Assembly (NCBI RefSeq): GCF_039542865.1
Contig: NZ_BAABIQ010000002.1
Span: 12,989-76,988, forward strand
DNA length: 64,000 nt
Reading direction: 5' to 3'
Source of the DNA: Olivibacter ginsenosidimutans
GTDB taxonomy: Bacteria > Bacteroidota > Bacteroidia > Sphingobacteriales > Sphingobacteriaceae
This document shows, one piece after another, positions 5,812 to 28,915 of the stretch (its first letter is position 1; each line of letters begins with the position of its first letter). The notes beneath the pieces are model-generated. The model saw only the letters and a list, made by a program, of their open reading frames with translations, did not search any database and was not told the origin of the DNA. The translations under genes and the position numbers were made by a program.

Positions 5812-6042
5812 ATGATAATGAAAAATCAATGTTTAACGAGTAAAATTGGAAGTGCCGCTGTGGGACAGGCCGCAGGTGGTCGGGTAGCGCTCGGAGCGAT
5901 GGTCATAGGAGCCTTGGCTGTTGGAGCAATGGCGATTGGTGCACTCGCAATCGGTGTACTTCGCATAGGGAAAGGAAAAATTGGTAGCTTGCATATTCAT
6001 GAGCTGAAAATCGACAAACTCATTGTAAAAGATCAAAAATAG
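5812..6042 (+). CDS. small glycine-zipper membrane peptide (hypothetical)
   Basis: 76 aa with a repeated GxxxG/AxxxG motif (GALAVGAMAIGALAIGVLRIG) forming one or two predicted TM helices. No other support. Confidence 0.3.
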   Translation: MIMKNQCLTSKIGSAAVGQAAGGRVALGAMVIGALAVGAMAIGALAIGVLRIGKGKIGSLHIHELKIDKLIVKDQK

Positions 6043-6238
6043 CACGACTAATTAATAACGGTGTTTATCCGCCGGAAGGATTACCCTATGAGCGACAGCT
6101 ACACACACTTTTCAAATCGATCATGAAAGGATATGGAGAAAAATAAAAGATGGACGAACTTGTAAAACCCCTTATCAAAGACGTGAATATAGATTTAACA
6201 CCTATTTAATACTGGTTATTTACTTTTGTGTCATTCGT

Positions 6239-6844
6239 ATGGCGCAACAAATAACAGACGAAATCATTGCTCAATTGAGAACCGGCAGCAAGCAGGCTTT
6301 TACACTAGTGTTTAAACAGTATTGGAAAAAACTATATGCCATTGCTTATCGACGTGTAGAAGACGAAGCCGCCGCCGAAGATATTGTACAGGAAATTTTT
6401 ATTGCTTTGTGGGATAAGCATAGTCAATTTACGATCAATAGCGCCAATATTGAATTTTATTTACTTAAAGCCGTAAAGAGCAGGGTGATCAATTACTATG
6501 TTTCGCAGAAAGTAAAAAGGGATATGTTGGCAATGGCTTTAATGCGAATGGAACAGTTTAGTGATCTTGAACAAGTAGGAGCAGGAGCACGTTATCAAGA
6601 GCTAGAAGCTTTAATCGATAAAGAGATTGATACTTTACCACCTACGATGAAGGCAATATTTTTAATGAAAAGTAATAATCACTCAATTGCCAGTATTTCC
6701 AGTACGTTAAACCTAGCCGAACAAACGGTAAAAAACAACCTCACCAAAGCTTCTCATCGCCTCCGGAAGTCACTTTTACAAAAATTTTCAGATGAGAAGC
6801 TGGCCACCATTATTGTCACTGCGTTTTTCTTCACAAAAAGTTAA
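6239..6844 (+). CDS. RNA polymerase ECF-type sigma-70 factor
   Basis: 201 aa with sigma region 2 (YWKKLYAIAYRRVEDEAAAEDIVQEIFIALW) and a C-terminal region-4 HTH. Followed by a FecR gene. A TAnnTTTG-like motif (tacttttg, 6221..6228) lies just upstream. Confidence 0.9.
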   Translation: MAQQITDEIIAQLRTGSKQAFTLVFKQYWKKLYAIAYRRVEDEAAAEDIVQEIFIALWDKHSQFTINSANIEFYLLKAVKSRVINYYVSQKVKRDMLAMALMRMEQFSDLEQVGAGARYQELEALIDKEIDTLPPTMKAIFLMKSNNHSIASISSTLNLAEQTVKNNLTKASHRLRKSLLQKFSDEKLATIIVTAFFFTKS

Positions 6845-6917
6845 CAAAAAAAACATCTGTATTGGAGGTACTTCTGGCCGGTCCGCTTGTATACCAGTAA
6901 AAGTAACATAAGTACAA

Positions 6918-7898
6918 GTGGATAAAGATCAATTTTTACTATTATTAAAAAAATACCAAGAAGATAATTTGAACGAAGAGGAGTGTGAGGTCCTGGAAAA
7001 TTGGTATAATTCTTATGGTTACAGCGAGGACATCAAACCACTGGAAAACCAATATAAAACAAAGTCCATTGAAAACCGCTTGTCTAAAAATATCTCCGGG
7101 CACATACAGCGGAAAAATACAGGCAGAATAAGGCAGGCAAGAAAATGGACAGTTGCAGCAAGCTTGCTATTGGGTTCAATTTTAGCCACTTATTGGTTTT
7201 TCCGTAGCAATATGGAAAGAACTGGTTTTGCTTCTGCAGGAGATAAAAAACCATTATACGACACAGTTTTGACGGCAATCGGAAAAATGAAAAAAATCAT
7301 TCTTCCGGATAGTTCGGAGGTTTGGCTTAATGCCAATAGCCAGATCCATTATGCCCCAACAAATTTCAGAGAAAAAAGAGACGTTTTTTTGGATAAAGGA
7401 GAAGCCTTTTTTGCTGTCGAAGAAAATCCGAAAAGTCCGTTTCAAGTTCATACCATCGATTTGAACACCCAGGTTTTAGGAACGAAGTTTAATGTGAAAG
7501 CTTATCCTGAATTGGATTACGCTACCGTCCACGTGAAAACAGGAAAGGTAAAAGTGACCACTAAACAAGGGGTTTTAATGGATACCATATCTGCAGGTAA
7601 CGGTCTGCGTTATGATCGCCTTAAAAATACCTGGCTCTCTGATAATCGTTTTGCACTACAAGCCGGGGAATGGATAGATGGCCGGATTACGCTTAATGAA
7701 GCGACTTTTGATGAGCTCGCTGCGGTGCTATATAACCGATTTCAGATTCGGTTAATCCGTGCTATGACCTTATCAAAGAATTACCGATATACCATTACTA
7801 TTTTACAGAATAAACCGTTGGAGGAAACGTTGCGGCTCATTTGTGCCGTACATCGCACTAACTACAAACAACATGGAAAAACAGTAACGATTTTTTAA
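6918..7898 (+). CDS. FecR family anti-sigma factor
   Basis: 326 aa with an N-terminal cytoplasmic segment, a single TM (WTVAASLLLGSILATYWFF), and a periplasmic FecR domain. GTG start. Confidence 0.9.
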   Translation: MDKDQFLLLLKKYQEDNLNEEECEVLENWYNSYGYSEDIKPLENQYKTKSIENRLSKNISGHIQRKNTGRIRQARKWTVAASLLLGSILATYWFFRSNMERTGFASAGDKKPLYDTVLTAIGKMKKIILPDSSEVWLNANSQIHYAPTNFREKRDVFLDKGEAFFAVEENPKSPFQVHTIDLNTQVLGTKFNVKAYPELDYATVHVKTGKVKVTTKQGVLMDTISAGNGLRYDRLKNTWLSDNRFALQAGEWIDGRITLNEATFDELAAVLYNRFQIRLIRAMTLSKNYRYTITILQNKPLEETLRLICAVHRTNYKQHGKTVTIF

Positions 7899-8016: not shown

Positions 8017-11000
8017 ATGAATTATGATCATAAGCTAAACCAGCTCATTATGAGAACTTTTTTGTTCGTCAGTTTCTTTTTTACCTGCGTCCAGATGCTA
8101 TTAGCCAGCCATTTGAGTGCCCAGGGAATACAAGAAAAAATTAATATTGATTTTAAAAATGAAAATTTAGCCGAGGCCATGGCTAAGTTCGGTAAGCTTA
8201 TTCCGGTACAAATGGCTTACGATGGCACGCTACTACAGCTCTCGAATCATCGCATAAAGGCAAAACATTTTGAAGAAACCGAAGCACAGGAAATATTAAC
8301 TTACCTCTTGTCTAATACTGGGATTACTTATCAAGAAAGTGATGGTAATATTGTGCTGATTAAACGCAATCAGTTGCAACAGTTGAGCAGCATTACTGGT
8401 CAAGTAAAAGATCAGTCTGGCGCACCGCTCCCAGGAGCTAATGTGACGCTCATTGAACTGCAAAAAACCGTGAGTACAGATGAGGAAGGTAATTTTCGAC
8501 TGAGCGTGCCACCAGGGACATATACCCTCGAAGTGAGTTATGTTTCCTATGAATCGCAACGACGAGAATCCATACAAATAACTGAAAATCAGAAATTAAC
8601 AATCAATTTTGATCTTAAAGAGGCAAAGGGCGTGCTTAGCGAGGTGGTGGTCATTGGTTATGGAGAGATGAAGAAAAGTGATTTATCGGCGGCTGTATCC
8701 ACCGTTCCAGATCTAGAGCAAGCCACTAAAAGACCCTTGGTAGATGTTCCCAGCATGATCCAGGGAAAAGTGCCTGGTGTAACGGTGGTTAGTAATGGAG
8801 GGCATCCCAATAGCACTCCTAAAATTACGATTCGAGGTACCGGATCCATTCAGAACGAAGATCCTTTAGTCGTTGTAGATGGTGTACCCAATGCGCCCTA
8901 TAACCCAGCAGATGTAGAATCGATCACGGTACTAAAAGATGCTGCTTCTGCTGCAATTTATGGTGCATTTGCCGGAGCATCGGGAGTTATACTCATCACC
9001 ACGAAACAGGCCAAAATCGGTGCACCGAGTATTCAGTATGATGCCTTTGCAGGCGCAAAAAGCGCTTGGCGATTACCACAATCGCTTACCGGCGAGCAGG
9101 AAGCCCAAGTGTACAACCAAGCTTATGCAACGGCAGGTCTAAATCTGCCTGATGGTTGGGATGCAACAAAAAATCCGGATGCGCAGATAACACGCACCGA
9201 TTGGATTAATGAGATTTTTCGTACTGGTTTAACTCACCGTCATACCCTAACAGTGAATGCGGGAACGGATAAATTTGCGACTCTCTTGCAAGGACGATAT
9301 GAAAAAAATGAAGGAACCTTATTAAATACCTTCAATGAAAACCTTTCTTTACGCTTTAATGCCCGTTACGATTTTACCGATCATCTGAAATTAAAGCAAG
9401 AGGTTTTTTATAATAACAATAGCAGCCGAGGTACCGAAACAGCCAGTGGGTACAGCGGTGCTATTATTTCGGCTATTTATATGCCACGATCAGCAAGCGT
9501 GTATTATCCTGACGGTAGCTTTGGGGGTGTAGGGCCAAAGGATTCGGAGTACCTTGGTATTTTTGGGGATGCCATTAATCCAGTAGCAACCTTATTACGA
9601 AATGATTCCTATAATAAAACAAATGATATTCAATCTATATCCGAATTATCATATTCCGATATTATCCCGGGATTGGATGTATTGTCTCGATTCTCGTACT
9701 ATCAATCAAATCTGTTTTACAAGAATTTCGATCCTCGTCGTACGGAACCGGGTAAACCCAACGATCAGAATATCCTGAGTTACGATGCCGATAAAAATTA
9801 CCATTGGATCTGGGAAAATACGCTGAACTATACCCGCTCTTTCGGAAAACACAATATAGGCGCCATGTTATCCACTACTGCTCAGACAGCTGTATTAAGG
9901 GGATTTGGTATTGCAGCCCGTGATTTTGAACGGGAAGATTATTGGGCACAATTTTTTATCAATGCCTCCGATTTTGATACCGATAGGCCTACGGATAGCC
10001 AAAGTGAAGACCGTAACGTGTCTTATGTCGGTCGTTTATCGTATAGCTGGGCCGATCGTTATTTTGTCACGGCAAGTTATCGAAAAGATATTGCCGGACG
10101 TTTGCCAAAAGGTTACCAAGGGAAGGGGCTCCCAGGTTTAACAGCGGCTTGGAAACTAAGTTCAGAACCATTTTTTAAGGTGTCTGGTATCGATTTATTG
10201 AAATTCCGGGCAAGCTGGGGACGCATCGGAAACTTGTCGACCATACCGATTAATTATGGTTACCAAACCTTGAGCAGTAACACCACGTACCAAATTGGGG
10301 ATGGAGCGCCTATTACCACCGCTTGGTATATTGCTAACCAGTTTAATCCTGCTCTTTCTTGGGAAACTTCCGAACAAATTGACATAGGAATGGACCTGAG
10401 TATACTACAGGAGCGTCTAACCATGACCGCCGACTATTTTAAAAAGAAAACGTATGATCTGATTCAAGATAAAACAACCGATTGGCCAAATACTTTCGGC
10501 TTAGGATCACCTAAAATTAACGAAGGAGAAATTCGCAATGAAGGTTTAGAATTAGCCTTAAACTGGAAAGACAAGATAGGCGAAGTATCGTACAATATTG
10601 GCGGCAATGTGGCCACCTTGAAAAACCGAGTCAGTTATATCTCTGAAGATCCGGATGCATTTTGGACCCACGGAGATGCATGGAGAGGTATTTTAACACC
10701 ATTCCGTTCAAAGGTTGGAGAACCATACTATTCTTATTGGTTGGTACAGACGAATGGATTATTCCAAAGCGATGCGGAAGCTCAATCCTATGTAGGTCCT
10801 GAAGGTACTCCCATACAACCAGATGCAAAAGCCGGCGATTTGAAGTTTGTTGACCAGAATAATGATGGACAGATTAATGATCTCGACCGCGTTTATATGG
10901 GCAATGCTTTTCCTAAATTTACCTATGGTTTTACAGCAAACCTGAACTGGAAAAACTTCGACCTTAGCTTATTTTTACAGGGTGTCGGTGGCGCGAAACT

Positions 11001-16020: not shown

Positions 16021-17031
16021 TTATTTACCTGCTGCTATATCTTTTTTAATCAACTCACGCGTGACTTCCAAAGCGTCTTTTCCCCTAGCAGGAACATCTG
16101 GAATTACACCGGTACCTTCCCAACCTTCTTCGCTGTTCGGACCAACAACCATTTTAACTGGGACAAAAGCGATGAGGTTATTTTTTAACGGAACAAACGA
16201 ACCAGCAATTCCTGCTCCGGCTGTGGTATCGCCAACAATGGTTGCCCGTTCTAATTTTTGCATCGCATAAGCTAAACCTTCAGAGGCAGAGCCCGTTCCA
16301 GGTCCCACTAAAATGTAAACTTTAGCATTTGGATTGCGTTTGCCTGGCACATAGGAATAGGTCCACTCTTGTTCATCCATTTTACGATCTTTATAGAAAC
16401 CGTTTAGGTAAAATTGCTCATTACCGGCATTGTAAAAATAAGAAGCAATGAAACGACCCATATGTCCCGTACCGCCCGGATTATGGCGAATATCCAAAAT
16501 GACGTACTTGCTATAAGCAGCCATATTCATCGCTGCTGCGGCCATTTCGAAAGCGTCCTGATTACCCCAAAAAGGACCAGGAACATCAAGGTAGGCAGTT
16601 GAGGTTTCGGCATCAATCTCCACCTTTTTAAATCCATAATTTTGCTTAATCATCCGCTCCTGTTCTGGATCACGATTACGAACACCACTGCGGCGTTCTT
16701 GTGGTTGAGTTAGTCGCTTATAGGTGTCTTCATCCTTCATTACACGCAAATGCACATCTTTGTGTACCTTTCTTAAATCGTTTGTTAACATCTTGCCTAA
16801 CGAATCTTCCGATAGATGCTTGTATTTTCCTGCTGCTTCATTGGCAAATAAAGCTACCTTATATTTTTCAGAAATTTCAGGAAAGGGATATACCGCTATT
16901 AACTTATTGGCCAAGGTTTGCACCAATTCATGTACATCGGTATCATTTACAAGCTGGGCCCTCAAAGGTAAGTAGCTGGTAAAAACGAACAGGAATATAC
17001 CAAATAAGGTCTTAGAATGGGATAATTTCAT
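16021..17031 (-). CDS. S41 family peptidase (C-terminal processing protease-like)
   Basis: Signal peptide MKLSHSKTLFGIFLFVFTSYLPLRAQ and S41 catalytic region (DIRHNPGGTG ... LVGPGTGSASEGLA). Start moved to the internal ATG at 17029..17031. Confidence 0.8.
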   Translation of the reverse strand: MKLSHSKTLFGIFLFVFTSYLPLRAQLVNDTDVHELVQTLANKLIAVYPFPEISEKYKVALFANEAAGKYKHLSEDSLGKMLTNDLRKVHKDVHLRVMKDEDTYKRLTQPQERRSGVRNRDPEQERMIKQNYGFKKVEIDAETSTAYLDVPGPFWGNQDAFEMAAAAMNMAAYSKYVILDIRHNPGGTGHMGRFIASYFYNAGNEQFYLNGFYKDRKMDEQEWTYSYVPGKRNPNAKVYILVGPGTGSASEGLAYAMQKLERATIVGDTTAGAGIAGSFVPLKNNLIAFVPVKMVVGPNSEEGWEGTGVIPDVPARGKDALEVTRELIKKDIAAGK

Positions 17032-17153
17032 AAAAAAGCAGGTTAAATTTGCAGCGCAAATATAGGAAAAGCGCGTGCTCATTCTGCTTTTGATGAAGGG
17101 TTTAACAATGTATTAACAAGGCAAATGCAGTTGAATCTGTGATAATAAACAAA

Positions 17154-19324: not shown

Positions 19325-22300
19325 CTATAACGTTTCCATAAACATTTTTCTAATCTGTTGGTGGTATTTTTGTGGACTTACTCGTAAAAAAATGGTAATT
19401 AAGTCGGTCGATATAGGTTTCAATGTAGCATAACGATACTGCATTAAAAATTGGTGTAGGGCATTATTCACGTTATCTTCACCAATAAGCTGGGCAAGCT
19501 TAACCATCACAACGGCACCCTTGGAATAGGATATATGCGTATTTTCATCGGTTACCCGATAAAGGGCTTGCGGTTTTGAAAAACCACTTGATGCCCTGTA
19601 AATCTGCTCGTGAACCTTTAAGTGTTGCAACATTTTTTCTCTCCCGTGCACCTGTTTATAAAGCATCATCTCGGTATACATGGCCAAGGTTTCGGTAAGC
19701 ATAGCTGCTCCTTCACGCTGATCTGGATCAATTTGGTTACCGCCCCACCACATATGTGAAAGTTCGTGTCCCACCAATTCGACAATCACATCTTGTTGTT
19801 CATCAGCATGTACGTTAGCATGAAAAAGCATATCTTCTGTCATAAAGACCGTGCTCGGATAGGCAGTAGCCGCAAAGCCACGGGTAAAGCTGGAAATTTC
19901 CGCAAAAGTAAGGGAATGAAATGGATAAGAACCAAAGTTCTGTTCGCAATAGGCTAAAGTACGTTTAGCATTTTGGATTAATTGAGACACGTTTTCGGTA
20001 TGTTCGGGATGATAATAGACAGAAATAGGCAAATCCTTGTAATGGTCTTTTTGAACACGATAGGTAGCTGATGACAATCCAAAACGAAAGGGTATAGGGC
20101 TGCTACTACGATATCGGAAGTAATTTCGGTGGTTTCGTGTCCAGGTCTGTATTAACTCGCCCGTACCCACAACATGCTGATCGCCTGAGGTGGAAACAAG
20201 CATATCCAAATGAATAAAATCATCGGTACTATCTCTTGGTGCATCGACTTTTTTATCTGGACTAACAGAACCTAAATCATATAGGGCACGTTGACTAGCT
20301 TGATCAATTTCACGGCTTCGCTGATAGCCAATTTGCGGAAAATATCTACTGATACGAATAAAGCTGCCATTGTTGACGATAGCATTAAATGATTGATGCC
20401 CATTGACCGCATGCCCAGTGAATGATAAATGAAACTGTAACTGTGCAGTAGCGCCGGGAGCTAGCGGATTGGTCAAGCATAATTCACTAACAGCCTTGTT
20501 AAAGGTATGTTTTTCCGCGGTAGAAGTGTATATGGCCCGAATAATATGGAAATCGTCAGGTATATTAATCAATATTCGATCGATATGGTGTTTACTTTTG
20601 TTTTGAAGCTGATACACACCTTTTAATTGATAAGCATGCTGCACCGGATAGAGTGCAATTTCTGTGCTTACATGGGTAATAGTAGGCTGAGGCAAGTGTT
20701 CATATATTTTATATCGCTTTTCATAGGTAGCTGATGCATATAAAACGGTCTGCTCATCACGTGGAAAATAACCTTGTTGAAAGGTGTAACCACTGTAAAG
20801 CCCAAATGCCAGCGAGCAGCATATGGCTAACAATGGGCGCCATCCAAGTTTTCGTCGCCTGATACTCCAATCGATTATAACTACGATAAGTAAGATGGAA
20901 AAACAAAAAAACATTCGGTAAATTGCACTGAACAAATAGAAATCATAACCGTTGAAATCGCTGAAGGGTCCGTGGTAGGTTGAAAAAAACTGGAATAAGG
21001 GAAAGGGAATCAGTTGTTTGTAAAAAGGGCTTTGCGCAAAGATCGCAATCGTTAGGGATAAGGTTAAAGCGAAATAACGCTGTTTCACCCAACTATGGAG
21101 CAATAACACTAGTACACTGAAAAACAATAGGGGCAAGGTATTAAAAACAAAAATGCCAAGATAGCCCCTCCAGTGAATATGAGGATAATGATAAGCATAT
21201 TGAAATAAGATACCTTCTATTACCATCAATAAGCTGAAGAACAGTAGTAGCAGAAATACCGATAGCATATGCCCTATCTGTTTTGTTTTGGCATAATAGG
21301 TAGCATTCTCCAATACATCAAATGCTGAAGCCTGACTGCGTGCATAAAGATCGTTGACGATATAAGCAAAAAGTAACATTGCTAATGGATGAAAACTTTC
21401 ACAGATGGTGGTTGTCATCAATCCGGTTCTGGCATACTGCTGTGGCAAGCGGATGCCCTGATCAATTGCTGCATACAACTCCATTCCAACATAAAATAAA
21501 ATGATGATGCTCATGCAAAACAAGATGATGCTCTTACCTATATATAAAAGATCCTTTTTCGTAAAAGACCAAATAGCACTTAGAAAATTTAAACGACGAA
21601 AGCTGGGTTCGATACCGACCAATGGCAATGTATGAGCGAGCTTTGTGGATATTGAAATTGGTTTGGCTTTGGCGCGCGACATTGTGCCATGAAAGGATAA
21701 GCGAAAATGGCCCGCAGCAATAAAAAACATGCTTAAAATCAGGATGATGCATCTATTGATGAGAAAATAGCCGCTTAAAGGAACAAGAAAATTATTACGC
21801 GCCACTACACTAAAATGGCTACTCTCAAAGAAATAGGCCGATAATCCATAAGGATCAACACATGCAGATAACCGTTGAACGAACAAAGATTGTGGTAAAC
21901 TACTGGCCATGAAAGGCGAATCGGAAAATACCAATAGTATTATATAGGGTATGTAAAGGCATAAACCACTAATGGCGGTTAATAGCTTTTTGCGCGTATG
22001 CCAAGCTATAAAATAGAGTACGCTACAGGTGAATAGCGTGTTAATAAAGCCAAACACCAAAAAAGCATAGCCGTAGTGAAAAAGATTTGAATGGACCTGT
22101 ATATCTGGCCCACTACGCAATTGTTGGCCAACAGTGAAACCGATGATTAGCCATAAAAAACTGCTGAAGACCAGACAGAAAAAAGAGGAGAATCGACCAA
22201 GGCTAAAGGTAAGTTTATTGATCGGTGTACTGAACAAAATGGCGTCAATATGTGTGTCCCACTCTTTAAACAGCAATTGGCAACCCAAAATAGTCGCTAT

Positions 22301-22495
22301 AAAAATGACCGACAGACTCAATATGCCGATTAAAAACCCAATAGTATAAGGCGAATTCACATAAATACCCTCACCAATTGAAAAATTAAATCGCATGCCT
22401 GCAAATAGTCCCATACCTATTAGCATGGATGCCAATAGGTATGCTGAAAAACGCCTAAGATAAGGAGTAATGTCAAAGCGAAAAATAGCGTTCAT
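19325..22495 (-). CDS. fusion protein: ABC-2 type transporter permease (about 12 TM) + M1-family gluzincin aminopeptidase domain
   Basis: 1056 aa. The N-terminal ~600 aa are highly hydrophobic multi-TM. The C-terminal ~450 aa have HELSHMWWGG (HExxH) and a downstream Glu ligand (AMLTETLAMYTE), the M1 zinc site. The start ATG overlaps the stop of the upstream ABC ATPase (ATGA). Confidence 0.8.
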   Translation of the reverse strand: MNAIFRFDITPYLRRFSAYLLASMLIGMGLFAGMRFNFSIGEGIYVNSPYTIGFLIGILSLSVIFIATILGCQLLFKEWDTHIDAILFSTPINKLTFSLGRFSSFFCLVFSSFLWLIIGFTVGQQLRSGPDIQVHSNLFHYGYAFLVFGFINTLFTCSVLYFIAWHTRKKLLTAISGLCLYIPYIILLVFSDSPFMASSLPQSLFVQRLSACVDPYGLSAYFFESSHFSVVARNNFLVPLSGYFLINRCIILILSMFFIAAGHFRLSFHGTMSRAKAKPISISTKLAHTLPLVGIEPSFRRLNFLSAIWSFTKKDLLYIGKSIILFCMSIIILFYVGMELYAAIDQGIRLPQQYARTGLMTTTICESFHPLAMLLFAYIVNDLYARSQASAFDVLENATYYAKTKQIGHMLSVFLLLLFFSLLMVIEGILFQYAYHYPHIHWRGYLGIFVFNTLPLLFFSVLVLLLHSWVKQRYFALTLSLTIAIFAQSPFYKQLIPFPLFQFFSTYHGPFSDFNGYDFYLFSAIYRMFFCFSILLIVVIIDWSIRRRKLGWRPLLAICCSLAFGLYSGYTFQQGYFPRDEQTVLYASATYEKRYKIYEHLPQPTITHVSTEIALYPVQHAYQLKGVYQLQNKSKHHIDRILINIPDDFHIIRAIYTSTAEKHTFNKAVSELCLTNPLAPGATAQLQFHLSFTGHAVNGHQSFNAIVNNGSFIRISRYFPQIGYQRSREIDQASQRALYDLGSVSPDKKVDAPRDSTDDFIHLDMLVSTSGDQHVVGTGELIQTWTRNHRNYFRYRSSSPIPFRFGLSSATYRVQKDHYKDLPISVYYHPEHTENVSQLIQNAKRTLAYCEQNFGSYPFHSLTFAEISSFTRGFAATAYPSTVFMTEDMLFHANVHADEQQDVIVELVGHELSHMWWGGNQIDPDQREGAAMLTETLAMYTEMMLYKQVHGREKMLQHLKVHEQIYRASSGFSKPQALYRVTDENTHISYSKGAVVMVKLAQLIGEDNVNNALHQFLMQYRYATLKPISTDLITIFLRVSPQKYHQQIRKMFMETL

Positions 22496-23418
22496 AAGCG
22501 TGCTTCAAAAGTATGTAAATAGGTGAAATAAACATGTTCTAGGGTAGGTTCGGCTAGTTGAAAATCTGTAAGTGGCACCGTTGAAAATACAGTGATATGT
22601 AGTTTTTTGGCAATCAATTGCTCGCTAATTATAGTATAACGAGAAGCATAATCTGACAGTGTTGATCGATCAATGGCTTTGGTCCATAGTTTACCGTTAA
22701 GTTTAGCAATTAACCGTCCGGGTTCTCCTGTGATCAATACCTCGCCATGTTGCATAATAGCCATTTGAGAACAAAGATGATACACATCCGTCACCAAATG
22801 TGTAGAAAGGATGACGACAATCTCTTCGCTGATTTCACCGAGCAAATTGTTCAACCGGTTTCGCTCCTCTGGGTCTAAACCTGCTGTAGGCTCGTCTACA
22901 ATGATCAGCTTAGGATTTCCTAACAGTGCCTGTGCAATGCCAAAACGCTGTTTCATACCTCCAGAAAATGTATGGACTTCCCGAGCCCCATGAGCGGTTA
23001 AATTGACTTTATCGAGCAAAGCGAGTATTTGTGTTTTGCGAGCAGTAACATCATGTACTCCCTTTTAAACGGCAAGATGTTGTAGGAGTTGATACGCGGA
23101 TAATTTGGGATAAACACCAAAATCTTGCGGCAGATACCCAAGGTTTTGCTTAACATAAGCCGGATCTCGAACGACATCGTGTTGGTTAAAATAAATTGAA
23201 CCCGAACTTGGTTGCTGCATACCTACAATTGTTTTCATCAAAGATGATTTACCGGCACCATTTGGTCCCAACAGGCCAAACATACCCTGACCAATCTCAA
23301 GCGAGACATTGTTTAAAGCCTGTACGCCATTTTTATACGTGAGACAAAGTTGTTGAATGGATAAGTTGTTCATAACAGTTAATTTTTGGACAATAGTATG
23401 GCAGGCAATGCAATACAT
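22492..23418 (-). pseudogene. ABC transporter ATP-binding protein interrupted by an in-frame TAA stop (codon at 23065..23067)
   Basis: N-terminal ORF 23065..23418 carries Walker A (GPNGAGKSS). C-terminal ORF 22492..23019 carries the signature FSGGMKQRF and Walker B (IIVDEPTAGLD). Both are in the same frame. Read-through gives ...QHLAV*KGVHDVTARKTQILALLDKVNL..., so a single TTA->TAA change would explain the stop. Confidence 0.75.
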
Positions 23419-23448
23419 CGCTTTTTTTGCAAATAAACTTTTATTAGT

Positions 23449-23655
23449 TTATTCCTCCACGTAGGCTAAAATATCCCCCGGTTGGCAATCTAGAATTTTA
23501 CAGATGGCCTCAAGGGTTTCAAAGCGAATACCTTTTGCTTTACCTGTTTTGAGAATAGATAAGTTGGCTTGTGTGATCCCTAGTAGCTCAGCCAATTCTT
23601 TGCTTTGCATTTTGCGCTTGGCAAGCATGACGTCTAAGTTTATAATAATCGGCAT
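23449..23655 (-). CDS. XRE/Cro-type HTH transcriptional regulator (YozG-like, HTH_26)
   Basis: 68 aa (MPIIINLDVMLAKRKMQSKELAELLGITQANLSILKTGKAKGIRFETLEAICKILDCQPGDIL). Starts 1 bp after the DUF2975-like gene. Confidence 0.8.
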   Translation of the reverse strand: MPIIINLDVMLAKRKMQSKELAELLGITQANLSILKTGKAKGIRFETLEAICKILDCQPGDILAYVEE

Positions 23656-23656
23656 G

Positions 23657-24193
23657 CTATATAATTAAATCTTGTTCGCGTTGTAAATAAAGACCCTGTG
23701 TAAAAATACTTGCTAAAAAGTAGCTAAATATACCTAAAATCAAATGTACAGATACCAAAGCCCAGATAACGCTTTCGATTGGTACAAAAAAACTTGCTAC
23801 GATGGTCGCAACACTTGGTATCCATACATTTAATTGATAAAACCTTTTTAGGTGCAGCACATGTGATGATATAAATAATTTTGCTTGGAAAAACACTTTA
23901 AACACATTTGCCGCCAACCAAAAGAAAATCCCATACAACATGATAGGCAATAAAAGGGAAAAGAGCATATACGACCAACTATTTTCCAATAAAAGAAACG
24001 CCTTTTGGGAAAAGGGGTAATTAATACGTAGGTATTGATTATTGCTATAACTTGCTATACTCCAACCACTGATTAAGCAGAGAGCACTGTAAATACCAGT
24101 GCCTAAATACGCAATAGCCGCTATGCGGGTAACGTAAAAAAGTATCTTGGATATTAATCTCGTTTGATTCATGGTAAAAAAATTATGATGCAA
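23657..24193 (-). CDS. DUF2975-like membrane protein (partner of YozG-type HTH)
   Basis: 178 aa with 4-5 predicted TM helices. It is the first gene of a tightly packed minus-strand operon. Confidence 0.55.
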   Translation of the reverse strand: MHHNFFTMNQTRLISKILFYVTRIAAIAYLGTGIYSALCLISGWSIASYSNNQYLRINYPFSQKAFLLLENSWSYMLFSLLLPIMLYGIFFWLAANVFKVFFQAKLFISSHVLHLKRFYQLNVWIPSVATIVASFFVPIESVIWALVSVHLILGIFSYFLASIFTQGLYLQREQDLII

Positions 24194-24464
24194 TAATAGC
24201 GAAAATTATTGTTTTACAATAATTTTTTAAAATAAAACAGTAATTCATAAAGATCACTGTTTTAAACAGGTACCTAAAATGATAAATGCTTAAGCCTGTT
24301 TCTGTAATAAGATGAACAATTGTTAACGGTGTAGATCTAGGATATGATCTGCTATAATACTTCTCAGGAAACGCGAAATTACAATCATGCGTGTTATAAA
24401 TTAGTTAATTGTTTGTAATAAATCTAAATAATATTAGATTTGCTAAGACAACGATCATCCAGAT

Positions 24465-24989
24465 ATGGAGACAGGCCAGTGGACATTTCAGAAAATAGCG
24501 TCATTTAAACGCCTATTCCAGTTTTATTGGGAAAGAGTGTTTGCACATTGTCTATTTTATTCAAAAGATCTGAATACCTCTAAAGATTTAACACAGAATA
24601 TTTTTCTCGATTTGTGGGAGAGGGGTAAGGAGTTTCCGGATCAAGAAAGTTTGGAAAAATACCTGTCTCGTTGTGCAAAATACCAAGTACTGAATTACTT
24701 TCACTATCAGAACACTACACAAAGATGCCCAATAGAGGATATACCCGAACAACCCGATTATCGGAATAATCCGGAATACCTATTTCAATATAAACAACTC
24801 GCCGAAAATCTTGAACGTTTGATTGATTCGCTACGAGAACCATGCCGTACGGTTTTTTGTATGAGTAGAAAACAAAATCTTAGCCATAAAGCCATCTCTA
24901 ACCAAATGGGCATATCCATTAGTACAGTGGAGTATCACATGAGCAATGCGCTACGTTACCTTCGAAAACAATTAGAAGCCCAACGCTAA
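24465..24989 (+). CDS. RNA polymerase ECF-type sigma-70 factor
   Basis: 174 aa with sigma region 2 (DLTQNIFLDLWERG) and region 4 (SHKAISNQMGISISTVEYHMSNALRYLRKQ). Followed by a FecR gene. Confidence 0.85.
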   Translation: METGQWTFQKIASFKRLFQFYWERVFAHCLFYSKDLNTSKDLTQNIFLDLWERGKEFPDQESLEKYLSRCAKYQVLNYFHYQNTTQRCPIEDIPEQPDYRNNPEYLFQYKQLAENLERLIDSLREPCRTVFCMSRKQNLSHKAISNQMGISISTVEYHMSNALRYLRKQLEAQR

Positions 24990-25155
24990 ACCTTTTTTAT
25001 TTTTTTTTAACTGATTTACAGTGCCTTGATAAAATCTTTTATTTTTTCACTGGGGTAACGCTTCCTTACTGTTAGATACCATAAATGGATGGAAGATTTG
25101 ACCTGCCAATGCATGCCCAGCCATGGCTGCGAAAGGTGGATAAAAACCAGGTGAA

Positions 25156-26100
25156 ATGGATAGAATAGATCCCGAGCTATTAAAAAGATATGCGGATGGA
25201 AGCTGCACAGATGAGGAACGCGCTATCGTGGAGGAGTGGTTAGATAAGGAGGATAATTTATTTGATCAAGAAGCTGAACCATTGCCGCAATACCAGTTGG
25301 ATAAACAGAAACGCGCACTATGGAATAGTTTTGTCGAAAAAGCTTTCCTGTACTCTGCAAGATTAAGATGGTGGAGATGGAGTTTGTATGTCAGTCTATT
25401 GGTATTGACAGGACTGGCCATACAAAGTATTTTCCACACCATACAGATCTATAAAGCTCCTGTAGTAATGCATACTCAAGAAGTACCACCGGGTAAAAAT
25501 TTGAAGCTCGTTTTGCCGGATAGCAGTACTGTTTGGCTTGCTGGGGGAAGCACATTGCGTTACCCGGAAACGTTTGCCGACTCTTTGCGTGAATTAAATT
25601 TGGTAGATGGAGAAATCTATTTACATGTTGTGCAAAAAAAGAACCAACCCTTCCGGCTTATTACCGATGGGGCGGTCATTCAGGTTTTGGGTACGCGTTT
25701 CTATGTAGAAAATCGACAGCATAATACACGTATGCGGATTGCACTTGAAGAGGGCAGCATTCGCTTTAGCCGAGGTACTAGTCGACAACTCCTTCAGCCA
25801 GGCGATCAATTGAGCTATTGGAAAGCAGATAGTACGTTCGAGATGCACCGCATTGCTCCAACTGATATTGCTAGATGGAGCAATGGCTTAATCCAATTTA
25901 ATCATACCGTCTTGCAGGAAGCGCTAGAAAAATTGGAAAACCATTACGGGGTTCGGTTTTTAATAGAGGGAAATCCAAACCTGAAACAACCGATAACAGG
26001 CAAATTTGATAACCTTCCGCTATCCCGTGTACTGCATCTTATGGAAGGCGTAACCAACCTGCACTTTAAGCAAGAGGGAAAAACAATAAAAATCAATTAA
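25156..26100 (+). CDS. FecR family anti-sigma factor
   Basis: 314 aa with a zinc-finger-like N-terminus (DGSCTDEERAIVEEWL), a single TM and a FecR periplasmic domain. Confidence 0.9.
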   Translation: MDRIDPELLKRYADGSCTDEERAIVEEWLDKEDNLFDQEAEPLPQYQLDKQKRALWNSFVEKAFLYSARLRWWRWSLYVSLLVLTGLAIQSIFHTIQIYKAPVVMHTQEVPPGKNLKLVLPDSSTVWLAGGSTLRYPETFADSLRELNLVDGEIYLHVVQKKNQPFRLITDGAVIQVLGTRFYVENRQHNTRMRIALEEGSIRFSRGTSRQLLQPGDQLSYWKADSTFEMHRIAPTDIARWSNGLIQFNHTVLQEALEKLENHYGVRFLIEGNPNLKQPITGKFDNLPLSRVLHLMEGVTNLHFKQEGKTIKIN

Positions 26101-26256
26101 TAAAAAAGAGGTATGACGAAAAAAAATAGGGCTAGCCCTGCCATTGGCTTGTTAAGCAATTCAGTTACATAAAAAGTACCGTCAGCGTGTTCCAGCACGC
26201 CGACGGATAAATACATCAATTTTTCAATTCATGATTTAATTAAGAACTTAAAACTA

Positions 26257-28915
26257 ATGAAATTATTTCAACTTCAAAACCCATTATTTGCTTTTGCATT
26301 AAGTCTCAGCCTTACCTTATATTCCTTTACTTACACATTAGCACAGGATCAACCAACACAACGCATTGTTTTAAAAGCGAATACAGCTTCTGTTGAAGAG
26401 TTAATTGCAGCATTAGCGAAACAAGCGGGTTTGAATGTTGTGTATAGTGATATTTCCAGTGAATTACCGAAAAGTGAATATCGGATCCAAGGAAACGAAT
26501 GTGCGGCAATTGTTACAACGAATGTCAGACCAAACTAACCTTAAGATAAGTCTGACCGGTCGTGATGTAATGCTTAAATTAGTACAGAAAGGTACTGTGC
26601 AAGGGGCCGTACACGATAAAAACGGGGAGCCGATTGCCTATGTGAGCATTGCCATACGTGGAAAACAACATACACAAACCGATCAGCAGGGGCGATATTT
26701 ATTGAAGAATGTTGAAGAAGGAACGCATACAATAACGGCCAGCTATATTGGATTAAAAACACAGCAAGGGGTTGTAAAAGTTGTCAATAATGAGGTTGTG
26801 ACGCTAGATTTTACCTTTGACGAAGAGTCGCTGGCATTAGAAGAGACGGAAGTTTTTGGCGTACGGAATCAACAACCTGAAAAATTGGATGACATTACCC
26901 GTTTGCCATTAAAACCGTCTGATCAAATTCAGAGCATATCCATCATTTCTGATAAATTGATTCACCAACAGGGAACACTGACCGTTAGGGATGCCGTACA
27001 GAATGTACCGGGTGTCTATACCTTTTCTACCTATGCTAACACGAAGGAGAGTATCGCTTCACGTGGATTCCGGGGTATACCAACGCTCAAGAATGGTGTA
27101 CGGGTTTATGAAGATGGTTTAGGACAAGGATTCATAACAGACATGGAAGGGGTGGAGAGTATACAGGTATTGAAAGGTTCAAATGCAATTACACAAGGCC
27201 TATCAGCCGATGTGGGTAATTCTGGTGGTGTGGTAAATATCGTTACGAAAACACCTAAGTTCGAAAATAGTGGATATGTATCCATGCGGGTAGGTAGTTG
27301 GGGCTTGGTAAGGCCTGCTTTTGATGTACAGGGCTTGTTGAGCGAGGATAAAAAGGTTGGTTTCCGTATGAATGGTGCGTACGAACGTCGTGATAGCTAT
27401 CGCGCATTGGTTAGTGGTGAGAAAATATATGTGAACCCCTCACTGGCTTGGCGCCCTGATGAAAAGACGAAGCTCATTTTGGAAATGGATTACCTGAATG
27501 ATAGTCGTACGCCGGATGCGGGCACAGTAAACTTGGGAGACTTGGGAACTGACGCGATTTATAATTTACCATACAATCAGTATCTAGGTTTTGAAAATGA
27601 TCGTTATACGACTAAGAACCTGACGTATGCCTTGCGGTTTAACAGGGAACTTACGGATCAGTTAAATCTGAGGGTAGCCTATTTTGGCTCTACGCTGCGC
27701 ACCAATAGTCAAAGTGTAAATTTGGGAACATTGCGTGATACGGCAGTGAATATCCGCACCCGCAACATTATAGGCTCCACAGTAGAAAATAATAATACCG
27801 CACTTCAAATCGACTTGGTGGGCACGGAAATAGAGACTGGGCCTTTCAAACATACGTTTCAGGTAGGCGTAGATTATAAAACCGCGCTCATCAAAACCTA
27901 TCTGCCAGAAAACAATATGCTGCGCATCGACACCGTGGATGTTTACCAACCCTTGACCAACACGTTGCCGGTAAGTGCACGGTTTAATTGGAATGGGACA
28001 CCTGTATCGGATGTCCATATCAATTCCTACGGTTTAATGGCGCAAGATGTAGTGACAATCGGCGCTTATGTAAAAGCAATTATGGGTTTACGCTATAGCA
28101 CGTCAGAGACAGAGAGCAACGGTAACTACGGCACAACCCGAGGGAATGCCTGGAATCCACAACTTGGTGTGATCGTTTCGCCCATGGAGGGCTTCAATGT
28201 GTTTGGGTCTTATACCAGCAATACCAATATCAATGCGGCAGGAATCATTGACCGCGAAGGTAAACCACTTGGCCGTTCGCGTTATGATCAGTTTGAAGTA
28301 GGGACAAAAACGGAATGGTTTGATAATAGGCTTCGTTTCAACCTAACGCTTTATAAAATTAATAACCGAAACCTGCCGATGCGTATCTATGAAGGTAATA
28401 TTCCGACACCTTTCTATGAAAAAGGAGGGAATGACGAGCGTAAAGGTTTGGAAGCAGAGCTCACAGGTAGGCTATTACCGCAATTGGATATTATTGCTGG
28501 TTATGCTTATATCGATGCTAAATACAAGGACCATACTTCCTATTACTACAATTCGGCTCCGCTAAATACACCTAAACACACATATAACCTATACCTTAAT
28601 TATCGTGTTGATAGAGGAACACTGGAGGGACTTTCAGTAGGGGCAGGTATCTATTATCTAGGGAAGCGGCCGATAAGCGATTGGTCGAGAGTGGTTGACG
28701 AGCAGCATGGTATCCAGCCTGGACAAAAACCTTTTGATATGAAGAGTATCACAACGGTTAATGCACAAGCAGGTTATTTATTTAACCAGCGGTGGGATCT
28801 ACGTGTTTTTGTAAACAATATATTCGACGAAATTGGTTACAATGCTTACCGCAGTTTATATATTAACCAAACGGATCCACGAAATGTGTCGGCTATCCTT
28901 ACCTACCATTTTTAG
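26257..28915 (+). pseudogene. TonB-dependent receptor with N-terminal STN domain (FecA-like transducer), interrupted by a frameshift in an A4 run (26470..26473); may be a sequencing error
   Basis: ORF 26257..26538 has a signal peptide and the first half of the STN domain. ORF 26435..28915 in the +1 frame continues STN (VNIGSKETNVRQLLQRMSDQTNLKISL), then carboxypeptidase-regulatory-like, plug and barrel, ending in Phe. Deleting one A gives ...SSELPKVNIGSKE... as a single protein of about 885 aa. Confidence 0.75.

Follow-up and report, generated by a model that had tools for sequence, protein, structure and literature searches.

Organization of the gene cluster

We analysed a stretch of 64,000 nucleotides (nt) from Olivibacter ginsenosidimutans (assembly GCF_039542865.1, contig NZ_BAABIQ010000002.1, positions 12,989-76,988), which is called the window here; feature coordinates are window positions. 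The minus strand of the window carries a cluster that encodes a fusion of an ABC-2 permease (ABC, ATP-binding cassette) with a zinc metallopeptidase of the M1 type, together with an ABC ATPase, a small helix-turn-helix (HTH) regulator and a DUF2975 membrane protein. The cluster is present in this organism at 19325-24193, where a preliminary description made from the DNA letters had placed it, and consists of two gene pairs: DUF2975 and HTH, then the ABC ATPase and the fusion. In the order of transcription, its features are as follows (aa, amino acids; ORF, open reading frame; TM, transmembrane).

23657-24172, minus strand: YoaS-like DUF2975 membrane protein, 171 aa from ATG 24172 (the ORF reaches TTG 24193), with about four hydrophobic stretches in a crude hydropathy scan
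23449-23655, minus strand: YozG-type Cro/C1 HTH regulator, 68 aa, Pfam HTH_26 (E 5.9e-25)
22492-23373, minus strand: ABC ATPase of the DrrA/GldA/LanF type, 293 codons with an in-frame TAA, ABC_tran (E 5.6e-31)
20771-22495, minus strand: aa 1-575 of the fusion, tandem ABC-2 (type V) permease, 6+6 TM helices and a 13th helix
19328-20770, minus strand: aa 576-1056 of the fusion, two-domain M1-type zinc metallopeptidase with a beta-rich N-domain and a thermolysin-like catalytic domain

The ORF listing gives 23657-24193 for the DUF2975-like gene, 23449-23655 for the HTH gene, 23065-23418 and 22492-23019 for two ATPase fragments, and 19325-22495 for the fusion. ATG 24172 rather than TTG 24193 is the likely start of the DUF2975 gene. 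Four minus-strand genes with gaps of 1-30 bp had been described. The DUF2975-like, HTH and 1056-aa fusion ORFs were confirmed, but the ATPase is not one intact gene, as the in-frame TAA interrupts it. The DUF2975 and HTH genes are indeed separated by 1 nt; the gap of 30 nt between HTH and ATPase, however, assumes a start at ATG 23418, and orthologous ATPases begin at MNxL residues corresponding to ATG 23373 here (MNNLSIQ), so the spacer is 75 nt. The reading of the DNA confirmed an ATGA overlap shared by the ATPase stop and the fusion start. That the genes form one unit agrees with a neighbourhood comparison across loci, in which the ATPase-fusion pair is conserved in relatives. On the 19325 side the unit ends, since a convergent Na+/H+ exchanger gene lies 10 nt beyond the end of the fusion ORF.

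The fusion protein and its distribution

Comparison with relatives indicates that the fusion is genuine and ancient. Three sets of homologues were used: about 100 full-length sequences from a word-indexed search, a scan of one genome per species, and 80 loci that were fetched. The full-length homologues span the whole fusion at 38-53% identity and come from Pedobacter, Chitinophaga, Chryseobacterium, Sinomicrobium, Maribacter and other genera; more distant homologues of about 1190 aa were returned by the same search. The genome scan revealed at least 424 loci with relatives, distributed in Bacteroidota, Acidobacteriota, Pseudomonadota (Janthinobacterium, Massilia), Gemmatimonadota, Planctomycetota, Ignavibacteria, Calditrichia and others. 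Near-full-length ORFs from the fetched loci were fused in every case (76 of 76), and the ABC ATPase gene was found directly upstream in 67 loci of many phyla. The preliminary description had allowed that the two parts might be separate genes in relatives, which would indicate a missed stop; this was checked, and the relatives carry them as one gene.

An exhaustive HMMER search with the membrane part alone (aa 1-580) gave 380 cluster representatives (50% identity) at E<=1e-10. Among the best 150 of them, 107 reach a length of 1000 aa or more, and the remainder look like fragments. The AlphaFold2 model is confident across the junction of permease and peptidase. A public protein (P0001) is 100% identical to the fusion and is annotated with 719 aa, its start lying inside the seventh transmembrane helix; the ORF and all homologues speak for a length of 1056 aa.

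The distant forms (P0097, P0099-P0109 and most distant loci; about 1160-1210 aa) have a C-terminal extension of 100-118 aa after the catalytic domain, which might be a small lid. Most forms of this length also contain an insertion of 15-16 aa in the cytoplasmic loop before the 13th helix.

Fold and topology of the permease

The structure was predicted with AlphaFold2 from an 85-sequence alignment (mean predicted local distance difference test score, pLDDT, 87.7; predicted template modelling score, pTM, 0.81), and the only disordered stretch in the model is the linker between the permease halves (aa 272-287). We consider the permease a tandem duplication of a six-helix ABC-2 unit, since a profile of the membrane part matched PmtD for the second half (E 0.012) and NosY for the first half (E 0.034) among PDB structures, the two halves aligned colinearly with each other (hhalign E 5.9e-4), and several homologues matched the ABC-2 families of Pfam. 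PF13346, PF12698, PF12730 and PF12679 were each matched by 5-13 of 30 homologues (best E 6.8e-9), and the window fusion itself had no Pfam ABC2_membrane match at E<0.01. The fold of the six-helix unit agrees with solved ABC-2 permeases. Because the permease is a tandem duplication, one fusion protein would be expected to work with two copies of the ATPase.

Roughly 12 transmembrane helices had been counted before; the model contains 13 long hydrophobic helices, the last of which (aa 552-572) is preceded by a strongly basic loop, SIRRRKLGWR. With the N-terminus inside, 13 helices and the C-terminus outside, the 85 family members have on average 29.6 Lys and Arg in the predicted cytoplasmic loops versus 9.1 in the periplasmic ones. 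The 13 helices and this bias place the peptidase, by prediction, in the periplasm, tethered to the inner membrane. When read by eye against the helices, most of the strongly conserved positions of the permease fall on the periplasmic side, D214-P215-F216-G217 and S512-D513-x-x-G516 among them, and this clustering suggests a function at the periplasmic face.

The zinc peptidase domain

The residues of the putative active site were located as follows.

19865-19879, minus strand: GFAAT (aa 873-877), in the position of the GxMEN motif with its Glu and Asn missing, from a HMMER alignment to IRAP
19754-19768, minus strand: HELSH zinc-binding and catalytic motif (aa 910-914; H910, E911, H914), at least 90% conserved in the family
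19691-19693, minus strand: E935, third zinc ligand, in LTETLA, 20 residues past H914, invariant in 85 sequences and aligned to the NEG Glu of IRAP

Peptidase_M1 (PF01433) matched aa 841-1038 with E 2e-17 and 63.9 bits, compared with a cut-off of 27.7. In the model the M1 part is composed of a beta-rich N-domain, which is too divergent for Pfam detection, and a thermolysin-like catalytic domain. HELSH, E935 and Y990 align to the zinc ligands, the general base and the catalytic Tyr of IRAP. Y990 belongs to a YxKG motif (Y990-S-K992-G993), aligns to 'syfkg' of IRAP and is at least 90% conserved. The catalytic residues are kept in sequences down to 17% identity, and E866 and E887 are also invariant. 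The domain is thus probably an active zinc peptidase of the M1 fold, and the Pfam match, the IRAP alignment and the predicted structure all bear out the earlier assignment of the HExxH region to this fold.

In M1 aminopeptidases the Glu of the GxMEN motif binds the free alpha-amino group of the substrate. We found GxMEN in none of 76 family members, which have GFAAT, FAQ[SA]F or FGGFA instead. Going by the motif of the M1 N-domain, the other Glu that binds the substrate's N-terminus, E121 in E. coli PepN, may be replaced as well. A C-terminal helical lid domain like ERAP1_C is absent, the chain stopping 142 residues after HExxH; such a lid is not universal in M1 proteins. Of the complete-looking M1 domain described before, the HELSH...E zinc site and the N-terminal beta and catalytic domains therefore stand, and the lid and GxMEN are missing. 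Because GxMEN is absent family-wide, the name "aminopeptidase" is without a basis in the sequence, and the aminopeptidase activity, N-terminal processing and trimming proposed earlier lost their support.

The nonsense codon in the ATPase gene

The ATPase gene is interrupted at one position.

23065-23067, minus strand: premature stop TAA, replacing an invariant Leu; its simplest origin is TTA (Leu) to TAA

The in-frame translation of 22440-23460 reads LLQHLAV-stop-KGVHD at this place, and the stop takes the position of the invariant Leu of 'LKG' in 13 of 13 aligned orthologues. The codon truncates the ATPase after 101 codons and splits it into ORFs of 117 and 175 aa. The alignment with orthologues shows no damage to Walker A, the signature motif, Walker B or the H-loop, and the NCBIfam matches are drrA, GldA and a lantibiotic-protection ATPase.

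Departures from orthologue-conserved columns amounted to 3 of 102 in the ATPase and 5 of 118 in the fusion, no more than in the orthologues; the HTH protein had none. An old pseudogene under relaxed selection was rejected for lack of any excess of departures in ATPase or fusion. As the rest of the ATPase is not degraded, TAA would be a very recent mutation or a sequencing error. An independent copy of the region around the stop was looked for in metagenomes, with no match, and exact-protein look-ups of P0001 and the HTH protein gave no contig. The cognate ATPase gene is adjacent, translationally coupled and highly conserved, yet not intact in the window, and since TAA cuts it, the pump and with it the module are probably inactive in O. 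ginsenosidimutans unless the codon is a sequencing error. This truncation makes the Olivibacter copy a poor choice for experiments.

Chryseobacterium proteolyticum (L012) has the fusion gene in two pieces, with ORFs at 6001-7800 and 8141-9169 (region L012:6001-9169). The apparent decay of the ATPase here and of the fusion in L012 suggests that the module is dispensable.

The DUF2975 and HTH genes and the upstream palindrome

The window DUF2975 protein scored E 1.6e-3 and 18.8 bits, under the Pfam cut-off of 27, so its membership holds only through its orthologues, of which five of seven pass the cut-off. The orthologues end in a conserved tail of the NEQDLxI type. Upstream DNA was available for 14 loci of the close clade, defined by an identity of at least 32%; DUF2975 was present in 13 of them and HTH in 12, with the order kept. 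Two inverted repeats were found upstream of the pair.

24205-24223: palindrome ATTATTGT-TTT-ACAATAAT, candidate HTH operator, 33-51 nt upstream of the DUF2975 start at ATG 24172
24233-24264: another inverted repeat, weaker and farther upstream than the candidate operator, with arms TAAAACAGTAAT and ATCACTGTTTTA separated by 8 nt

A perfect 11-nt inverted repeat covers 24202-24226, and the palindrome is unique in the window. The form ATTATYGT-N3-ACRATAAT was found upstream of the DUF2975 gene exactly in eight loci of different genera and near-exactly in most others. We regard the palindrome as a strong candidate for the operator of the HTH repressor. The control by a YozG-type HTH and its DUF2975 partner, proposed earlier, gains support from this conservation and from the synteny in the close clade. 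YoaS-YozG operons carry upstream inverted repeats across phyla (bioRxiv 10.64898/2026.09.15.751765), and the palindrome at 24205-24223 agrees with them.

The distant forms of about 1190 aa are not accompanied by DUF2975 and HTH. About 14 loci contain instead a LytTR response regulator and a PF06580 histidine kinase, mostly divergent.

L009, L016, L017, L019, L021, L022, L026, L027, L029, L031, L032, L039, L043 and L050: LytTR/PF06580 genes, about 1-3 kb upstream of the ATPase gene

Both kinds of regulator occur in L009. Two unrelated sensor-regulator modules, each with a membrane-embedded sensor, thus accompany the pump, and this suggests that it may be induced by an envelope signal. A scan for sigma-70 promoters and terminators, which does not model Bacteroidota promoters, found promoter-like sites no commoner than in shuffled sequences.

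A conserved hairpin between the gene pairs

The 75-nt spacer between the HTH and ATPase genes contains two further conserved elements.

23405-23421, minus strand: small hairpin GCGATG-TATTG-CATTGC, with a run of seven A before it
23388-23396, minus strand: motif CTATTGTCC (yTATTGyC) after the hairpin, about 17 nt before the ATPase ATG, conserved in 10 orthologous spacers

The stem of the hairpin differs between genera with the pairing kept, and several loops are of the GNRA type. Pairing was found in 88.9% of cells versus 24-44% when the partner was slid; four of the six pairs had compensatory changes, and the covariation score was reached by none of 500 shuffles. No Rfam family was found in the operon at E<=1. 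The hairpin may mark where the transcript is processed, act as an attenuator or form the 5' structure of a second transcript, and yTATTGyC perhaps a promoter element or a repressor half-site. As a Bacteroidota -7 box (TAnnTTTG) the motif was dropped, since the orthologues fit inconsistently.

Neighbouring genes

On the plus strand, 24465-28915 is divergent to the cluster and contains an ECF-type (extracytoplasmic function) sigma factor with Sigma70_r2/r4 matches in Pfam, an ORF resembling a FecR-type anti-sigma factor (25156-26100) and a large one resembling a TonB-dependent receptor (26435-28915). These genes appear to be a separate regulatory unit. The minus strand at 16021-17082 carries an ORF of 353 aa; it has a hydrophobic stretch near the N-terminus and a GPGTGSASE sequence reminiscent of S41-type (tail-specific) peptidases.

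Possible function of the module

The function had been called uncharacterised, and literature searches on the fusion found no functional study, in agreement with that. We tentatively favour, at somewhat less than even confidence, an inducible device that extracts and degrades membrane-active peptides. The pump would take amphipathic or hydrophobic peptides from the inner membrane or the cytoplasm and deliver them, on the periplasmic side, to the open cleft of the tethered peptidase, where they would be cut. The HTH protein would repress the operon at the palindrome, and the DUF2975 protein would relay a membrane signal; in distant relatives the LytS-type kinase and the LytTR regulator would have the equivalent role. 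This reading is favoured by the likeness to PmtCD, which is one of the two closest structural relatives, the families of the ATPase, the predicted periplasmic location together with the conserved residues on that face, the catalytic residues kept in spite of the loss of GxMEN, the ATPase-fusion pair found across phyla, the conserved palindrome, the lack of a local precursor, the lid-less cleft and the membrane-sensor regulation. When a conserved precursor peptide was looked for nearby, the only conserved small ORF was the HTH gene, the others being antisense shadows of coding regions. Recurring biosynthetic neighbours were not found in the 80 loci. Exogenous or general substrates are favoured by these two results. 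Beta-lactamase-like genes were scattered among the other neighbours at varying positions, which we took as chance.

Several points weigh against an extracting and degrading role. PmtD and NosY resemble the permease only weakly in sequence (E about 0.01-0.03), and a common fold does not fix the substrate. NosY is the best structural match, and the NosY machine is generally thought to act on a periplasmic partner and not to export a peptide. The loss of GxMEN is no proof of endopeptidase action, since the role of the missing Glu could have passed to E866 or E887, both of them invariant. The dispensability suggested by the decay here and in L012 fits accessory resistance but also many other roles. 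The literature found holds no experiment on any family member, and no substrate.

It is rather doubtful, in our estimate, that the fusions as a whole are a widespread and unrecognised Gram-negative class of this kind, in which the pump would pull membrane-embedded amphipathic peptides (antimicrobial or leftover signal peptides), the lid-less peptidase would cut them internally, and a membrane sensor (DUF2975/YozG or LytS/LytTR) would switch the system on.

The main rival, unlikely though of some standing, is mechanotransmission: the ATP cycle would change the conformation of the tethered peptidase, switching or gating it on periplasmic or envelope substrates, with no transport. FtsEX-EnvC, and NosDFY by current models, work in this manner. 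On the other hand, the type V fold is shared by PmtCD, ABCG and Wzm, which are genuine exporters, the best matches of the ATPase are to families of resistance and export, and no conserved gene for a periplasmic partner or target adjoins the module.

We consider the export-coupled maturation of the preliminary description improbable. There an endogenous peptide or protein would be exported and its N-terminus trimmed on emergence. An exporter joined to a peptidase does recall the peptidase-containing ABC transporters, and the M1 fold was confirmed. However, GxMEN, which anchors a substrate's N-terminus, is absent family-wide, the HTH gene is the only conserved small ORF, and biosynthetic genes do not recur in the 80 loci; the idea of processing a dedicated product accordingly found no conserved precursor peptide or biosynthetic gene nearby. 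The neighbours that recur are regulators, more typical of stress or resistance modules.

Still less likely, in our view, is that an ordinary ABC-2 exporter carries an M1 domain which serves for binding or as a scaffold and, as in TAF2, has no catalytic role: conservation reaches at least 90% at H910, E911, H914 and Y990 and is complete at E935, down to 17% identity, as purifying selection on catalysis would give. An artefact, in which a missed stop or a faulty assembly would have joined two genes, has practically no chance, since the 719-aa public record would speak for it but the full-length homologues, the 76 of 76 fused ORFs, the 107 of 150 long representatives and the confident junction model refute it.

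As a candidate for anti-phage defence the cluster was rejected: PADLOC gave only generic similarity for the ABC ATPase and the HTH protein, and the fusion and the DUF2975 protein were unmatched.

Comparison with known systems

The architecture is already catalogued and named in RefSeq and UniRef as 'ABC transporter permease/M1 family aminopeptidase'. That family is alike in architecture, length (about 1056 aa) and upstream ATPase, and in the close clade also in DUF2975 and HTH. No structural difference separates the window protein from it; the window copy differs by the nonsense codon in the ATPase gene and by the 719-aa public record. A large family thus carries a name derived only from its architecture, in which "aminopeptidase" may be wrong. 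Our analysis adds the periplasmic topology with a 13th helix, the type V fold and the family-wide loss of GxMEN, and also the candidate operator, the spacer hairpin, the LytTR control in distant relatives and the nonsense codon. The periplasmic topology, the intact catalytic site without an aminopeptidase motif, the candidate operator and the intercistronic hairpin provide handles for experiments. If transport by the pump is followed by cleavage by the peptidase, the module would be the first known case of an ABC exporter that destroys what it has carried across the membrane, and it could offer cells a new way of resisting membrane-active peptides; the proposed class of extracting and degrading systems, if true, would give the YoaS-YozG pair its first function.

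Among transporters, PmtCD is the phenol-soluble modulin exporter of Staphylococcus aureus (PDB 6xjh), in which PmtD is a six-helix homodimer subunit without a peptidase. The substrates of PmtCD are amphipathic peptides, which it exports from the membrane and against which it protects the cell (PMC9974410, PMC12623860, PMC7527219). The fusion differs in its tandem units, its 13th helix and its predicted periplasmic zinc peptidase, and the similarity is marginal (E 0.012). NosDFY, which serves nitrous oxide reductase maturation (PDB 7o0y), assembles a copper site, and its NosD is a separate beta-helix protein and not a peptidase; nos genes are absent here.

Peptidase-containing ABC transporters (PCATs; PCAT1, ComA, LahT) have, like the fusion, an ABC exporter covalently joined to a peptidase. 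In PCATs an N-terminal, cytoplasmic C39 cysteine peptidase is carried by a type IV exporter with a fused ATPase, and the leader is cut before export. The fusion instead has an M1-type zinc peptidase at the C-terminus of a type V permease, in the periplasm by the predicted topology, where cleavage would follow transport or take place apart from it. Peptidase_M1 was the only Pfam domain detected in the fusion, with no match to C39, and the ATPase is a separate gene.

The M1 aminopeptidases (PepN, ERAP1, IRAP) have in common with the fusion the N-terminal beta and thermolysin-like domains, HExxH...E and YxKG. The canonical spacing from the second His to the Glu is 18 residues in M1 enzymes. The fusion differs from them in this spacing, which is 20 residues, in GFAAT for GxMEN, and in the tether to a transporter. 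The best architectural match is a two-domain M1 enzyme of Deinococcus radiodurans (PDB 6a8z), which is likewise without the C-terminal helical lid.

The YoaS-YozG operon, finally, is alike in the gene pair, its order and the AT-rich inverted repeat upstream; in the window, by contrast, the pair is linked to an ABC/peptidase pair, with a conserved hairpin between the two.

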